Positions 16,158 to 26,468 of a stretch of DNA of 32,091 nucleotides are shown one piece after another. Both the position numbers and the translations under genes were made by a program. Numbering within the stretch: position 1 is the stretch's first letter; each line of letters begins with the position of its first letter. The stretch is from a virus (lineage: Duplodnaviria > Heunggongvirae > Uroviricota > Caudoviricetes). The notes under the pieces were generated by a model, which saw nothing but the letters and a program-made list of their open reading frames with translations, had not been told where the DNA came from and did not search any database. Location: IMG/VR virus record IMGVR_UViG_2609459797_000004, positions 1 to 32,091 of that record; one strand, given 5' to 3'.

Positions 16158-16284
16158 GCTCTACCCCTTCATTGAGGGGATTTGCTCTATTTAATTAGGA
16201 ATAAGGTCGATTACTGATAGAACAAATCCAGGCTACTGTGTTTAGTAATCAGATTTGTTCGTGACCGATATGCACGGGCAAAAT

Positions 16285-16314
16285 GGCAGGAGGTTGTTAG
16301 CGCGACCTCCTGCC
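16285..16314 (-). terminator. Strong hairpin in the late leader (candidate tR'-like terminator)
   Basis: 10-bp perfect stem GGCAGGAGGT/ACCTCCTGCC with a 10-nt loop, followed on the minus strand by ATTTTG; lies between the Q-like gene and the holin. Confidence 0.4.
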
Positions 16315-16658
16315 ACCCGCTTTCACGAAGATCATGTGTAGAAGGCCGCAGCGTAACTATCACTGATGAATTCATGATAGCCAGTGGCTACTGCTCAGTT
16401 TGGATTGTGGCGACCGGTGCTGATCTCCGGTTTGCTGCAACTGCCTACAGCGGGCTACGTGGCCACACCGAATCCAGCGAAAGATTCTTGCCCTTACACA
16501 TCAGCCTGTGCATTCACCACAACGATAAGAGCACTGCGCGGCACCTTTCACCAATTCCGCGAGGTCTGCGGGTTCAATGCTCTTACCTGTTGTGCAAACA
16601 AAAAAAGCCACCGTTGCAACTTAAGAGTCACTAACGGCAGCTTACCCTCTAATTATGG

Positions 16659-22636: not shown

Positions 22637-22837
22637 TTATGCAGTTGTTTTTTTGTTACTTGGGAAGGGCTTTATTTCTTCCGCATAAACGCTTCCATCA
22701 GCGTTTATAGTTAAAAAAATCTTTCGGCCTGCATGAATGGCCTTGTTAATCGCGCTTTGATATACGCCGAGATCTTTAGCCGTCTTGGTTTGCCCAAAGC
22801 GTATTGCATAATCTTTCAGGGTTATGCGTTGTTCCAT
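22637..22837 (-). CDS. cro: Cro repressor, lambda type (66 aa)
   Basis: [66 protein letters not shown] differs from remembered lambda Cro at two positions. Confidence 0.92.
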
Positions 22838-22934: not shown

Positions 22935-23651
<717 letters not shown>

Positions 23652-23682
23652 TTGTTTTATTTTTCACGTAATAGGATGATTT

Positions 23683-24024
23683 ATGACACAATTTCAACTT
23701 GCATTAATCGCTAGAGAAGTTGATGGAGAAGTCATCCATCTTCGCACCAAAGACGGATACATCAATGCCACCGCGATGTGCAAGTCTGCGGGGAAGCTAC
23801 TTGCTGACTATACACGACTAAAAACAACACAAGATTTTTTTGATGAATTATCACGCGATATGGGGATTCCCATATCGGAGTTAATTCAATCATTTAAAGG
23901 CGGAAGAGCAGAGAATCAAGGGACTTGGGTTCATCCAGACATCGCAATTAATTTAGCTCAGTGGCTATCTCCAAAATTTGCAGTGCAAGTATCGAGATGG
24001 GTGCGTGAGTGGATGTCAGGTTAA
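23683..24024 (+). CDS. KilA-N (APSES-like) domain protein, 113 aa, at the rex position
   Basis: AGGATGA ribosome-binding site; signature GYINATAMCKSAGK...DYTRLKTTQDF...GTWVHPDIAINLAQWLSPKF typical of KilA-N domains; co-oriented with cI. Confidence 0.7.
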   Translation: MTQFQLALIAREVDGEVIHLRTKDGYINATAMCKSAGKLLADYTRLKTTQDFFDELSRDMGIPISELIQSFKGGRAENQGTWVHPDIAINLAQWLSPKFAVQVSRWVREWMSG

Positions 24025-24063
24025 AGAGCGCCTGCCGAACTCCCTATCCACCTTAAGCGGTAT

Positions 24064-24442
24064 ATGACAAACCGAGGCAGAGTTCCTCATACGCACTTTT
24101 CTATGCTTAATGAACTGACGTTTAACTTGGTTGCGCCACTTGAACAGGCCGGATATACGCTGCCAGAAAAAATGGTCCCTGATATTTCAGAGGGTAGGGT
24201 TTTCTCGCAATGGCTCCGTGACAACCGGGGGGTTGAGCCGAAGACATTCCCAACATATAACCATGAGTACCCAGATGGCCGGACATTCCCGGTACGTCTA
24301 TACCCAAACGAATATTGCAGATTTCAAACAATACTTCAACGAAGTGTGGCTGCCTCAGTACGCTCCTAAATATTTTGCTGAACGAGACCAAAGGGCATTG
24401 ACGTTGATTGAGAAAATCATGCTACCTGACCTTGATTCCTAA
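24064..24442 (+). pseudogene. Interrupted coding region downstream of the KilA-N ORF (same frame to 24369, +1 frame to 24442)
   Basis: Frame-1 ORF 24064..24369 is separated from the KilA-N ORF by a single TAA. The protein-like C-terminal stretch that runs to the terminator is in the +1 frame (track ORF 24131..24442). May be a decayed gene or separate genes. Confidence 0.4.
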
Positions 24443-24450
24443 ATGTTATT

Positions 24451-24477
24451 CCCGGCCACAGAGCCGGGTTTTCTTTG
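24451..24477 (+). terminator. Intrinsic terminator after the cI-operon cargo
   Basis: CCCGGC-CACAGA-GCCGGG hairpin followed by TTTTCTTTG, 9 nt after the 24442 stop. Confidence 0.6.
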
Positions 24478-24628
24478 CCTCACGATCCCCCTCACCCAAG
24501 AACACATAACCAATTGTATCTATTTGAAAATAAATAGATACAACTCACTAAACATAGCAGTTCAGATCTCTCACCTACCAAACAATGCACCCCTGCAAAA
24601 AATAAATTCATATAAAAAACATACAGAT

Positions 24629-24690
24629 AACCATCTGCGGTGATGAATTATCTCTAGCGGTGTTGACATAAATACCACTGGCGGTGATAC
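24629..24690 (+). promoter_or_regulatory. Left operator OL3-OL2-OL1 with PL promoter, lambda type
   Basis: AACCATCTGCGGTGATG (OL3), TATCTCTAGCGGTGTTG (OL2), TACCACTGGCGGTGATA (OL1); -35 TTGACA at 24663..24668 and -10 GATACT at 24685..24690, directed toward the N gene. Confidence 0.8.
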
Positions 24691-24759
24691 TAAACACATC
24701 AGCAGGACGCACTACTCACCAGGGCGGTGAATATACAACGATTCGAATATGAATCTACG

Positions 24760-24774
24760 GCGCTGACAAAGCGC
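24760..24774 (+). promoter_or_regulatory. nutL boxB-like hairpin (P22-type GACAA loop)
   Basis: GCGCT-GACAA-AGCGC, about 75 nt downstream of the PL -10 and about 260 nt upstream of the N start. Confidence 0.5.
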
Positions 24775-25035
24775 AATAACCAAAGTGAACTTTGGGGTGT
24801 GGTGAAGCCAGCTAGTCACTGGCAAGTGCTTACCTACTGTTGAGCGGTGAAGCGCTCCCAACGCTAGCAATAGCGTGGACGAGATGGGGAGCCGCGGGCG
24901 ATAAGGCCGCCATAACGCGCACGTTGTCGCATGGAAAAATCACTGGGGTGCCGGTTATACCCCTCCGAATGAGACTCAACAAGCTGGAGCTAGACTACCA
25001 GCCACCACACCACCAAAGTTCATCAGGAGGTCTAT

Positions 25036-25419
25036 ATGACACGCAGAACTCAGTTCAAAGGCAATTCACGTTCTCGTCGTCGTGAGCGTTTAAAGGCAAA
25101 GGCATTAGCTAACGGCGTACTGGCCCGCGAAGAAGCAATAAGTTCAGAAGTATTACACCGCCCTACTCTAAGCAGAGCGCAGATTCAGGCTAAAGGTACT
25201 CACGAAACGCCTGAGCGCAAAGAAGACGCTAAGCCAATTAAGTTCATGGCACAGGACGTGATCTGGCAACAGAAAGAATACAGACGCAATCTGGAGCGAG
25301 CGGCCATTGTGTACGCGAATGAGTTTGGACATAAGCAACCAGAAACTGGTGTATGTCTTCCAAACGTAGCCATTTACGCGGCAGGCTACCGGAAATCAAA
25401 ACAACTGACAGCGAGGTAA
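25036..25419 (+). CDS. N-type transcription antiterminator, P22 gene 24-like (127 aa)
   Basis: N-terminal arginine-rich motif (RSRRRERLKAKALA); C-terminus CLPNVAIYAAGYRKSKQLTAR matches the remembered P22 gp24 C-terminus; GGAGG ribosome-binding site. Confidence 0.75.
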   Translation: MTRRTQFKGNSRSRRRERLKAKALANGVLAREEAISSEVLHRPTLSRAQIQAKGTHETPERKEDAKPIKFMAQDVIWQQKEYRRNLERAAIVYANEFGHKQPETGVCLPNVAIYAAGYRKSKQLTAR

Positions 25420-25422
25420 GTG

Positions 25423-25647
25423 ATGAATCAGACATACATTCCATCATGCTTGAGAAATCTGCCAAAGCAGAAAGCAAAGCCCCGCAAGCAAGCCATAAAG
25501 GACGCTAAGGCAGAGGTTATTGATCAAGCAATACAATTGCTCAGGGAGGAGTTAAGAAGTGGCAAGCTCGAAGGAATGATGATTCCCTATCAGCGCGGAT
25601 ATCTATCGGCGATTAGTAAGTTGGAAGTATTGAAGAGTGAATTATGA
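25423..25647 (+). CDS. Hypothetical early protein (74 aa)
   Basis: ATG 4 nt after the N stop; basic and helical; track ORF starts at the GTG at 25420. Confidence 0.4.
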   Translation: MNQTYIPSCLRNLPKQKAKPRKQAIKDAKAEVIDQAIQLLREELRSGKLEGMMIPYQRGYLSAISKLEVLKSEL

Positions 25648-26336
25648 ACTATCTGGAATTTCCGGATGGTTCATTGTTTTGGCAGCAAACCACTTATTTG
25701 AGAGGAATTAATATGTCATCAATCCGCTTAACTACGAGAATGAAAGAGGAAATCGCTCGTAACGCTTTAATTAAGTCTGGGGTTTTCACTGAACTTGAAG
25801 AAGTAACAAAGTTAAAGAACCAGCTTGCACTTGACGCCAGAGTTATTGCGTTTGGCGGTAAAAAGAAAACTGAGGAAGTGGATCAGTTATCATCCAAGTT
25901 GGTAGCTATAAGTGAAGAACTTGGAAAGATGGGATGTTCATTTTACTCATACGATGTTCGTTCTACTTCAATTTATCTGACTGTATCTGGCAGAAGGGTT
26001 GGATGGCTTTCATATGGGAAAGACGGCAACGGCGAAGATATATTGCTCCCTGCTCCGAACGAAGATAAATGCATGTTTAGCGCAGAACACGAAATAACAA
26101 AAAGGTTTGATGAAATCTGCGCATTGCAACAAAAACTTGAAGCCAAGAAAAAGGATATCGAATCAAATGTATGGGCTGCTTTGAACTCAGTCACAACAGT
26201 TAAGCGACTTATTGAGGTTTGGCCTGAAAGCAAAGAATTGCTACCAAAAGAAGCAGATAAAGCAAGTACAGCACTTCCTGCTTTACGGGTAGAAGATTTG
26301 AATAAGATGATTGGACTTCCTTCCGAGGCCGCATAG
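25644..26336 (+). CDS. Hypothetical early protein (230 aa), function unknown
   Basis: Start overlaps the upstream stop (ATGA); an alternative internal start MSSIRL at 25713 has a GAGG ribosome-binding site; ends inside a terminator hairpin. Confidence 0.45.
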   Translation: MNYLEFPDGSLFWQQTTYLRGINMSSIRLTTRMKEEIARNALIKSGVFTELEEVTKLKNQLALDARVIAFGGKKKTEEVDQLSSKLVAISEELGKMGCSFYSYDVRSTSIYLTVSGRRVGWLSYGKDGNGEDILLPAPNEDKCMFSAEHEITKRFDEICALQQKLEAKKKDIESNVWAALNSVTTVKRLIEVWPESKELLPKEADKASTALPALRVEDLNKMIGLPSEAA

Positions 26337-26350: not shown

Positions 26351-26468
26351 TGGCATAAACAACATAATAAACACAGCACTGTGTATTCATTCCAACGAGT
26401 GAATACACGGAGCAATGTCGCTCGTAATTAAACAGGAGCAGACTTGTTCTGATTGTTGGAAATCTTCT

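Follow-up and report, generated by a model that had tools for sequence, protein, structure and literature searches.

What role, if any, is played by a perfect inverted repeat that lies between the terminator of a cI-cargo operon and the left operators of a lambdoid prophage? In the window, by which we mean the whole 32,091-nt stretch analyzed here, a repeat search placed the two arms of this element at 24514 to 24525 (TTGTATCTATTT, + strand) and 24532 to 24543 (AAATAGATACAA, + strand). The arms are 12 nt long, 100% complementary, and held 6 nt apart by a loop or spacer at 24526 to 24531 (no strand), giving TTGTATCTATTT-GAAAAT-AAATAGATACAA. The original prediction, made from the letters of the sequence, had described a perfect 11-bp repeat at 24515 to 24542, which is correct and corresponds to the inner 11-bp version of the 12-bp arms. 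It had also assigned the repeat to the interval that separates the cargo terminator from OL3, about 90 nt before the latter, and this too is right, with OL3 beginning 85 nt after the repeat as measured. The repeat starts 38 nt past the T-run of the intrinsic terminator Timm, and its center lies at −169.5 relative to the start of PL (24698), with a span of −155 to −184. When the window was shuffled 400 times under a first-order Markov model, perfect arms of at least 11 bp with a loop of 3 to 10 nt occurred at a mean of 0.08 per window (probability of one or more, 0.06), and perfect arms of at least 12 bp at a mean of 0.02 (P = 0.018). The real window holds one other such repeat, at 16284. The inverted repeat exceeds chance expectation and is positionally conserved in relatives.

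The surroundings of the repeat are those of a lambda-type immunity region. The cI repressor gene (22938 to 23651, + strand) is followed in the rexAB position by a cargo gene for a KilA-N domain protein, which is disrupted here (23683 to 24442, + strand), and then by a Timm-type intrinsic terminator of the cI-cargo operon (24451 to 24476, + strand). The latter has a 6-bp stem made entirely of G-C pairs and a 6-nt loop (stem-loop at 24451 to 24468), with a T-run that extends to 24476. It is homologous to the Timm of lambda, found just downstream of rexB, and the records of HK544 and CL707 annotate Timm at the homologous place; in the HK022 record, the region carries no annotation. Timm was described as an intrinsic terminator immediately downstream of rexB, and its optimal termination was found to require the distal end of rexB (Thomason et al.). 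Beyond the terminator comes a spacer whose RNA is untranslated, C-rich, and G-poor (24477 to 24628, + strand), then the operators OL3 (24629 to 24645, mapped from the lambda annotation), OL2 (24649 to 24665), and OL1 (24673 to 24689), none of which is assigned a strand; compared with lambda, OL3 and OL2 have one base difference each. The PL promoter (24663 to 24698, + strand) has its −35 element TTGACA at 24663 to 24668 and its −10 element GATACT at 24686 to 24691. A scan for promoters and terminators near the repeat returned nothing besides PL and Timm, and the transcripts that would reach Timm and the spacer are those from the cI promoters.

Comparison with phage lambda showed that the palindrome is the window's allele of an unannotated, AT-rich, imperfect palindrome at 35738 to 35767 of lambda, as judged by sequence alignment. 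The spacer between Timm and OL3 in lambda (J02459, 35652 to 35824) is homologous to that of the window and has the repeat in the same position and orientation. Identity is 93% over 265 bp by megablast (alignment to lambda 35560 to 35824), and 28 of the 30 positions of the aligned repeat are identical. The genome record of lambda has contained this sequence since the 1980s, and the window carries a two-base variant of it. In lambda, pair 7 is a T.G mismatch, pair 12 is missing, and the loop is 8 nt long, whereas the window version has 12 perfect pairs and a 6-nt loop because of 24520 C and 24525 T, where lambda has T and G. Two further differences lie nearby: the C-run after Timm is 5 nt longer in the window than in lambda, and upstream of Timm the window has the KilA-N cargo pseudogene where lambda has rexAB.

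Both differences from lambda sit in the left arm, and each creates complementarity to the right arm. Template-switch "correction" of quasipalindromes is a known class of mutation in E. coli, and there, likewise, an imperfect repeat is made perfect by changes confined to one arm. Here, unlike in that case, an intermediate is present: a variant with T at position 12 and the T.G mismatch at pair 7 was found at three loci, and since it exists in other prophages, a single ordinary transition is enough to give the repeat of the window. By sequence, either mechanism may lie behind the perfect form.

The suggestion that the repeat be searched for at the same position in other lambdoid genomes gave a positive result, with counterparts in lambda, HK97, HK544, H-19B, VT2-Sakai, and more than 200 viral contigs. 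The perfect form, by comparison, occurs at 8 of approximately 229 sampled loci, and 3 of 417 E. coli genomes carrying the block are identical to the window over 100 nt. In lambda and most relatives, pair 7 is the mismatched T.G and the loop differs as well; no part varies more among relatives than the loop (GAAAAATA, TGAAAATT, TCAAAATT, GGAAAATA, and others). By these alignments, the perfect symmetry is a lineage-specific detail. Absence of the repeat from otherwise near-identical prophages, which had been named as an outcome that would speak against a role, was found in part. In 13 to 19% of the sampled relatives, a 12-bp deletion has removed the loop and the inner right arm, so that half of the repeat and the hairpin are lost from otherwise homologous blocks. 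Another 8 to 10% of loci combine G3>A with A27>G, which leaves a weaker hairpin of about −3.7 kcal/mol. In about 75 to 80% of loci, spread over about 5 to 6 operator types, the 11-bp stem is kept. Since it is deleted in some relatives and weakened in others, the repeat is not essential in whatever role it may have. A metagenome scan gave 2/120 real loci, and genome contigs scanned with a 17-mer from Timm yielded almost solely chance matches and contaminating lambda DNA in unrelated assemblies.

The same comparison revealed the unit in which the repeat is inherited. Timm and the next ~95 bp, repeat included, behave as one portable conserved block that runs from Timm to an AGATCT site at 24564 to 24569 (24451 to 24569 in all, no strand). 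On its upstream side, this block adjoins at least 34 clusters of cargo ends, and on its downstream side 15 clusters, the latter being read by us as about 5 to 6 operator types, and the same cargo gene was found with at least four versions of the repeat in different prophages. Homology to H-19B, VT2-Sakai, and related phages stops near AGATCT, upstream of the operator-specific DNA, which indicates that the block travels with the terminator and not with PL. Alignment across these phages thus shows the block to be inherited independently of both the upstream cargo and the downstream operators. Its identity among phages, 73 to 95%, is ordinary for lambdoid mosaic segments.

The original prediction had offered two roles, a binding site for a dimeric regulator and a structured RNA element. 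The second is the better of the two, although weakly: a bias toward changes that G.U pairing tolerates speaks for it, and the lack of compensatory change and of an Rfam family speaks against it. The hairpin is the only substantial predicted structure in the spacer (z of −3.5 for the window and −2.6 for lambda), and the centroid fold of the spacer contains the AU hairpin, two stems of 4 to 5 bp, and nothing else. On the + strand, the first 13 hairpin-bearing variants have a predicted RNA stability between −7.8 and −9.9 kcal/mol in 11 cases, and the two that lie outside this range are the window (−11.6) and one other variant (−5.9). On the − strand, it ranges from −1.1 to −7.6 kcal/mol in the 12 non-window variants and is −14.0 in the window. 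Among 13 substitution events in the stem, a standard pair is kept on the + strand in 8 and on the − strand in 4. At A:T-paired positions of the stem, A>G is seen at 6 of 9 A's, whereas 1 of 9 T's shows T>C; this ratio was 6:0 and became 6:1 once loci were collected with anchors outside the repeat. The flanks of the repeat have no such bias. For preserved + strand pairing, the statistic was chosen post hoc and its value is marginal, with p between 0.018 and 0.15 according to the assumed share of transitions. Compensatory double changes were absent from the 11-bp stem, in which six pairs vary on one side, and shuffle controls were not exceeded. A search of the whole window against Rfam 15 gave no match at the gathering score, and a scan of 24300 to 25100 gave chance-level matches (E ≥ 2).

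Several defined RNA functions were considered for the hairpin and rejected. It had been regarded as too AT-rich for a typical intrinsic terminator, and we agree: the window copy has two G-C pairs among its 12 and the lambda copy a single one, the terminator scan had no match there, and the stem is followed by CUCACUAAAC on the + strand and AUUGGUUAUGUG on the − strand instead of a U-run. By direct reading, it does not resemble boxB of a nut-type site, with no boxA-like CGCTCTT in 24476 to 24560, an AU-rich stem, and a loop of 6 to 8 nt; the block is common to phages annotated with different N proteins. Direct reading likewise set aside an RNase III substrate, for which the stem is too short, and a CsrA site, for which GGA occurs in the loop of some variants only. 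The consensus pause element (G-10, Y-1, G+1) was also absent by direct reading after the AU-rich hairpin, a point that counts against the Rho-linked reading given below.

The base composition of the spacer provides a different setting for the hairpin. The 78-nt segments at 24478 to 24561 have a C/G ratio of 4.4 to 4.6, the maximum among the 32,014 such segments of the + strand, for which the 99th percentile is 2.6. The stretch from 24544 to 24621 contains 22 C's and 5 G's and includes a chain of seven C's spaced 11 to 13 nt apart. The features that RhoTermPredict takes to define a rut site (at least 78 nt, more C than G, regularly spaced C) are present in the spacer, and its RNA, which lies beyond both Timm and the stop codon of the cargo gene, is untranslated and predicted to be largely unstructured. 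Moreover, the excess of C over G continues beyond the homologous sequence in H-19B, PhiR12_1, and SH2026Stx1. In composition, then, the spacer at 24477 to 24628 looks like a rut, or Rho-loading, region. Counting against such a role, a C-rich, G-poor composition alone predicts Rho termination weakly.

The best reading of the repeat, to which we assign a probability of roughly 0.35, is that it forms a dispensable AU hairpin on read-through RNA within a Rho-loading backstop. If it is active at all, the repeat would most likely act on + strand RNA, in transcripts that start at PRM, PRE, or cargo promoters and read through Timm. Such RNA is expected to fold into an AU hairpin of 11 to 13 bp amid ~150 nt of C-rich, G-poor spacer, and the spacer would serve as a Rho-dependent backstop behind Timm. 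In the lysogen, CI bound at OL may help the backstop as a roadblock, and the whole would serve to prevent lysogenic transcription from entering N and the early genes beyond it. The hairpin itself would merely tuck away the AU segment, free of C, that separates two C-rich halves, which would make it dispensable and fits the 12-bp deletion that replaces it; its perfect symmetry would have no function of its own.

In this role, the hairpin would parallel boxB in the Rho-dependent terminator tR1 of lambda, which has the architecture rutA-boxB-rutB. Both tR1 and the spacer of the window consist of two C-rich, G-poor, unstructured tracts split by one small hairpin, and both lie in untranslated RNA upstream of a termination zone, which in the window is putative. 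The two have no sequence homology; the hairpin of the window is AU-rich and has no boxA or boxB features, and N binding is not expected. The window site lies behind an intrinsic terminator, whereas tR1 lies in a leader, and Rho dependence is in the present case a prediction. A second parallel comes from the rac prophage, where the Rho-dependent terminator trac acts on the PRM-racR transcript and keeps kil silent; trac is labeled "timm" in a plasmid name. Like the proposed backstop, trac stops a transcript from the repressor promoter of a lambdoid prophage, there from reaching kil. It differs in being located inside racR with no preceding intrinsic hairpin-plus-U terminator, and its action was shown experimentally, whereas the backstop of the window is proposed. 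Intrinsic and Rho-dependent termination have been reported to cooperate at 3′ UTRs.

A broader version of this proposal is that Timm is the first tier of a two-tier insulator and that the block following it is an undescribed Rho-dependent backstop with a CI roadblock at OL. From our analysis of the locus, we consider this broader version tentative and rather unlikely. P22 has a gap of merely 38 bp between c2 and OL3, without a terminator, and is uninformative for comparison of the repeat; since it manages with this arrangement, such an insulator is not a general requirement.

The repeat itself matters little, being a two-base variant of a lambda sequence that can be lost without obvious consequence. 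What surrounds the palindrome is of more use: Timm, together with a tail of ~95 bp, makes up a standard junction module, which sits behind the cargo ("moron") slot that is most active in lambdoid prophages, and nowhere else in the window is the Rho-loading composition as strong as in this tail. Should the tail prove to be a Rho-dependent backstop, it would be an added layer that insulates the lambda switch from its own lysogenic transcription, and this would help to explain why such a variety of defense or cargo genes can be exchanged safely in the slot. Were the two-tier insulator real, any cargo gene could be inserted between cI and Timm without endangering the switch.

Among the alternatives, the one that survives best is that the repeat has no function and is an old quasipalindrome in the spacer, kept similar through common ancestry and homologous recombination, with the Timm block being a junction frequently exchanged among lambdoid phages. 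The perfect form would then have arisen by one or two ordinary mutations or by template-switch correction of the quasipalindrome, and the location of both lambda differences in the left arm, complementary to the right arm, is what template switching predicts. The rarity of the perfect form, the multiple versions of the repeat beside one cargo gene, the deleted or weakened hairpins, the absent compensatory double changes, and a block identity typical of lambdoid mosaics are all consistent with this explanation. It has more difficulty with the retention of the 11-bp stem in most loci and across operator types, with the skew of substitutions toward pairs tolerated on the + strand, and with the extreme excess of C over G, which reaches past the homologous part and is not predicted by simple drift. 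We regard the absence of function as possible, if doubtful.

An architectural role in the DNA is unlikely. It would require that the left flank and left arm form an IHF-type core on the − strand, at which IHF or another nucleoid protein bends the DNA far upstream of PL, while the AT-rich loop and right arm act as an upstream A/T tract and the dyad symmetry is incidental. The candidate core ATACAATTGGTTA (24507 to 24519, − strand) overlaps the left arm and matches WATCAANNNNTTR at 11 of 13 positions; the spacer contains no match to the IHF consensus with one mismatch or fewer. Matches with up to two mismatches, which are no more than suggestive of such a site, fall in just two clusters between 24440 and 24700, at −81 to −96 and at −164 to −185 relative to the PL start, the second on the repeat and the first in what we take to be the IHF/UP region of PL. 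The best-conserved core parts, CAA and TTA, are intact, and in 86 unique spacers all four N positions vary against three of nine specified positions (Fisher, about 0.05), one of the three being an allowed R change. The right arm may be deleted with the core retained; the A/T tract, TTATTT, is situated within the loop and right arm, 8 nt upstream of the core on the − strand, and variants with the 12-bp deletion lack it.

Against a site for IHF, the two mismatches are at WAT positions, and matches of this quality are common in AT-rich DNA. Specified core positions are substituted in 37 loci in all (C4>T in 18 and A6>T in 19). Spacing between the repeat and the −35 element of PL has two modes, 148 and 152 to 153 bp; they are half a helical turn apart, which argues against a DNA role that depends on phase. 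In addition, it is with Timm that the block is passed on, rather than with the segment carrying the operators or PL, and the strand-asymmetric substitutions in the stem are left unexplained by IHF binding. IHF/UP elements upstream of lambda PL were reportedly described by Giladi and coworkers between 1990 and 1998, the IHF sites L1 and L2 upstream of pL reportedly being named in the 1990 work, and an IHF site and UP elements in this region were reportedly treated by Michalowski and Little and by Cui and coworkers in 2013. The lambda elements and the window site are alike in being AT-rich with an IHF-like core of two-mismatch quality. The characterized elements reportedly lie at about −40 to −110, which corresponds to 24590 to 24660 here, whereas the repeat, at −155 to −184, is farther upstream and in a segment inherited with Timm.

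A leftward promoter on the − strand is quite improbable. Here, the nearly invariant TACAAT (24513 to 24518) would serve as the −10 element of an antisense transcript into Timm and the 3′ end of the cargo gene or rexB; it agrees with the −10 consensus at 5 of 6 positions and lies where the block is best conserved, and the DNA upstream of it is AT-rich. However, a consensus scan of both strands from 23600 to 25100 found no promoter except PL, the hexamer is changed to TACATT in 19 loci, and the sole TTG-containing −35 candidate seen by direct reading (TTGTAT, 19 bp away and without a TG extension) is lost in the 12-bp deletion variants.

The least probable reading is the first role offered by the original prediction, an operator at which a dimeric, sequence-specific regulator of phage or host reads two symmetric half-sites on duplex DNA: the perfect 12-bp dyad symmetry and the regulatory intergenic location favor it, but the perfect symmetry is confined to one lineage (in lambda and the majority of relatives, pair 7 and the inner pairs break the symmetry), one half-site is deleted in 13 to 19% of loci, and the half-sites span 24 to 30 bp against the 14 to 18 bp typical of operators for helix-turn-helix (HTH) dimers. 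By direct reading, the spacing does not fit the operators of LexA, CRP, TyrR, Fis, lambda, 434, or P22. A dimer encoded at the locus is very unlikely, since the block occurs with about 5 to 6 operator types and at least 34 cargo types, and no locus-encoded protein therefore co-varies with the repeat. The 6:1 excess of A>G over T>C also counts against a protein that reads duplex DNA, because dyad symmetry equates A>G in one arm with T>C in the other.

The repeat sits in an immunity region of lambdoid type, in which the + strand of the window corresponds to lambda's leftward direction. Lambda-type cro (22637-22837, - strand) and cI (22938-23651, + strand) are accompanied by a KilA-N cargo gene (23683-24442) where lambda has rexAB, an intrinsic terminator (stem-loop 24451-24468, T-run to 24476), OL3 (24629-24645), OL2 (24649-24665), OL1 (24673-24689), PL (-35 at 24663, -10 at 24686, start at 24698) and N (25036-25419). 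From 24451 on, the window shows 93% identity to lambda 35560-35824, and since this lambda segment begins one base past the rexB stop, the terminator at 24451-24476 is Timm; HK544 and CL707 carry this annotation. According to Thomason et al., Timm terminates the PRM and PLIT transcripts intrinsically, directly downstream of rexB, and depends on upstream context for optimal termination. The cargo gene is disrupted relative to the intact 253-aa ORF of phage PhiR5_2 by a nonsense TAA at 24022-24024 (GAA in PhiR5_2) and a 2-bp deletion after 24314, apart from which there are just 3 mismatches in 760 nt. The outermost base of OL3 (24645; AACCATCTGCGGTGATG vs ...ATA) and an inner base of OL2 (24656; TATCTCTAGCGGTGTTG vs TATCTCTGG...) differ from lambda, and the same changes are present in viral contigs with the window-type repeat.

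Direct reading of 24514-24543 gave TTGTATCTATTT-GAAAAT-AAATAGATACAA, for which the repeat finder returned arms of 12 nt each, 100% complementary and 6 nt apart; the centre lies at -169.5 relative to the PL start. The perfect 11-bp inverted repeat of the original prediction (24515-24542) is the inner part of this element, and both its GAAAAT spacer and its location between the cargo terminator and OL3 were confirmed. First-order Markov shuffling of the window (400 replicates) gave, on average, 0.08 perfect repeats per window with arms of at least 11 bp and a 3-10 nt loop, and 0.02 when the arms were at least 12 bp; a pure accident is unlikely. The lambda counterpart, TTGTATTTATTGAAAAATAAATAGATACAA at 35738-35767, has eleven pairs, one T.G, and an 8-nt loop. 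Two bases of the left arm set the window apart from it (24520, C for lambda T; 24525, T for lambda G), and both produce the exact complement of the right arm. Three viral contigs carry only the second change, which places the window type a single transition from a known form. By this comparison the repeat sequence is lambda's own, long public, and the window copy is a two-base variant; no annotation was found at its position in the lambda record or in the Degnan-Little immunity-region records.

Homologous loci were gathered by BLAST and by IMG/VR pattern scans, with anchors placed around the repeat or leaving the repeat and its flanks free. The free-repeat anchor set held 228-229 loci with 86 unique spacers. 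The window-type repeat occurs in 8 of these loci, and a 12-bp deletion (TTGTATTTATT|GATGTAA) that takes out the loop and half of the right arm occurs in 44 (19%; 13% in a differently anchored sample). A further 17-18 loci combine G3>A with A27>G, which weakens the hairpin to -3.7 kcal/mol. At least four versions of the repeat are found among prophages that share the window's cargo gene. In E. coli, megablast detected the 100-nt block in 417 of 5,426 complete genomes, 3 of them identical to the window. One of the three, strain 81 (locus L309, NZ_CP088131 1495084-1499183), has a decayed prophage in which the LexA-family repressor gene is frameshifted, the antiterminator gene split and a neighbouring gene truncated. 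The proposed search for positional conservation in lambdoid genomes thus returned a repeat that is conserved in position, though imperfect or absent in many relatives. The C-run after Timm (24487-24499; CCCCCTCACCC in the window, GCCCCC in lambda) is an indel hot spot among relatives, in which the Timm-to-repeat distance ranges from 24 to 32 nt.

Inter-phage homology starts a few bases ahead of the Timm stem and, in phages with other operators (H-19B, VT2-Sakai, PhiR12_1, phi419 and SH2026Stx1), ends near AGATCT at 24564-24569. Over 222 loci, 34 cargo-end clusters adjoin the resulting Timm block upstream and 15 clusters adjoin it downstream, which represent, by our reading, about 5-6 operator/PL types. 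This association of many cargo ends and several operator types with one block indicates that the repeat is inherited with the terminator. Judged from these junctions, it is not inherited with cargo, operators, repressor or N, and this pattern rules out partnership with a locus-encoded regulator. The repeat as a finding is ordinary: it is real and conserved in position, with no local regulator tied to it. The 12-bp deletion is nearly restricted to two operator types, named after collected loci, L247-like (37/44 loci) and L248-like (6/6 loci), and the hairpin is still present in a few L247-type loci. The cI-Timm slot is a very active cargo site, with at least 34 different upstream gene ends on one Timm block. 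In P22 (L311, 30893-31013) the c2 stop codon is just 38 bp from OL3, and both terminator and spacer are missing; not every lambdoid phage, therefore, has a lambda-style insulator separating its repressor gene from PL.

Folded as + strand RNA, the 164-nt spacer is predicted to form a single substantial structure, the hairpin (z = -3.5 in the window, -2.6 in lambda). Of the first 13 variants bearing the hairpin, 11 have + strand stabilities of -7.8 to -9.9 kcal/mol, the outliers being the window (-11.6) and one variant at -5.9 kcal/mol. On the - strand the values run from -1.1 to -7.6 kcal/mol among the 12 variants other than the window, which itself reaches -14.0 kcal/mol. The steadier + strand values arise because most changes give G.U pairs on that strand. 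In the free-repeat anchor set, 13 (position, base) events hit the stem, and a standard pair is kept in 8 on the + strand and 4 on the - strand; under neutrality 0.30-0.44 would be expected, a value that varies with the assumed share of transitions (p = 0.018-0.15). A>G occurred at 6/9 A:T-paired A's vs T>C at 1/9 T's, a bias not seen in the flanks. The structured RNA element that had been suggested is, weakly, the better of the two original ideas; neither a compensatory double change in the stem nor a known RNA family at the repeat was found. The pattern of substitution and stability is consistent with a + strand RNA hairpin and is no proof of one.

The stretch from Timm to OL3 has the strongest C-over-G skew of the whole window on the + strand. 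Within the spacer, 100-nt windows reach 29% C and 7% G (top 0.1%), and 78-nt windows have C/G of 4.4-4.6, compared with a 99th percentile of 2.6. Between 24544 and 24621 there are 22 C and 5 G, with a chain of seven C's at 11-13 nt spacing, a pattern that agrees with the rut criterion of RhoTermPredict. The skew persists beyond the homologous part in H-19B, PhiR12_1 and SH2026Stx1. Folding of the hairpin places two C-rich tracts side by side (95 nt, 37 C, 8 G); the C-free segment between them is also what the natural 12-bp deletion shortens. Two C-rich tracts split by a hairpin resemble the rutA-boxB-rutB layout of lambda tR1.

We tentatively propose, at a probability of about 0.35, a Rho/CI-roadblock model. 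Downstream of Timm, RNA reading through from PRM, PRE or cargo promoters would be untranslated, C-rich and largely unstructured, and Rho could load on it. In a lysogen, the polymerase would stall 85-150 nt beyond, at CI bound to OL3-OL1, and Rho would free it ahead of nutL, N and the early genes, the hairpin being a tolerated organiser and not an essential part. A precedent for termination on a repressor-promoter transcript is the rac prophage, where a Rho-dependent terminator on the PRM-racR transcript silences kil and its failure is lethal. Moreover, intrinsic and Rho-dependent termination have been reported to cooperate at 3' UTRs, and the upstream context of Timm is exchanged in every cargo swap. 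The one idea worth testing concerns the spacer, not the palindrome, with the Timm tail as a Rho-dependent backstop; this reading is rather unlikely, and would be of moderate interest if true.

Neutral inheritance of a repeat without function is possible, if on the unlikely side. The block is about as similar between phages as is usual in lambdoid mosaics, roughly a quarter of the sampled loci have lost the hairpin or carry it in weakened form, the strand-asymmetry and pairing statistics are marginal and post hoc, and the perfecting changes resemble ordinary mutation or quasipalindrome correction. An IHF-type site overlapping the repeat appears improbable. The - strand 13-mer ATACAATTGGTTA (24507-24519) matches WATCAANNNNTTR at 11/13 positions with CAA and TTA intact, an A/T tract lies at the usual distance, and among relatives 4/4 N positions vary vs 3/9 specified positions. 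Matches with up to two mismatches in 24440-24700 are confined to the repeat and to -81 to -96, where the IHF/UP region of PL lies. However, the core has two mismatches, its specified positions are changed in 37 loci in all (C4>T, 18; A6>T, 19), the repeat-PL spacing is bimodal (148 and 152-153 bp, half a helical turn apart), and the block is linked to Timm, not PL. Two IHF sites upstream of pL were reportedly given the names L1 and L2 by Giladi et al. in 1990.

Binding of a dimeric regulator, also suggested originally, is very unlikely: most relatives are asymmetric, many lack one half-site, and together the half-sites cover 24-30 bp. The substitutions are also strand-asymmetric, which is unexpected for a protein reading a symmetric duplex, and the block is not inherited with any locus-encoded regulator. 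An intrinsic terminator, already judged too AT-rich to be typical, is rejected on 2/12 G-C pairs, no U-run on either strand and a silent terminator scan. A - strand promoter with the near-invariant TACAAT as -10 is very unlikely, given the lack of a usable -35 (best candidate 19 bp away) and a negative promoter scan.

The Timm-OL block was also observed in contigs (genome_contigs) labelled Paenibacillus, Ancylomarina, Shewanella, Tardiphaga, Desulfovibrio piger, Chromatium, Kitasatospora, Capnocytophaga and Pseudomonas (loci including L129, L142, L160, L163, L164, L174, L177, L188 and L197). Their identity to the window is ~91% over 130 bp, the same as that of lambda's own copy, and they almost certainly reflect contaminating lambda DNA. 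Besides the repeat at 24514-24543, the window holds just one perfect short-loop inverted repeat, a G+C-rich element at 16284-16315 whose 11-bp arms (TGGCAGGAGGT / ACCTCCTGCCA) are 10 nt apart. A 22-nt inverted repeat at 26371-26418, 77% complementary with a 4-nt loop, is intergenic and follows the 25644-26336 ORF.
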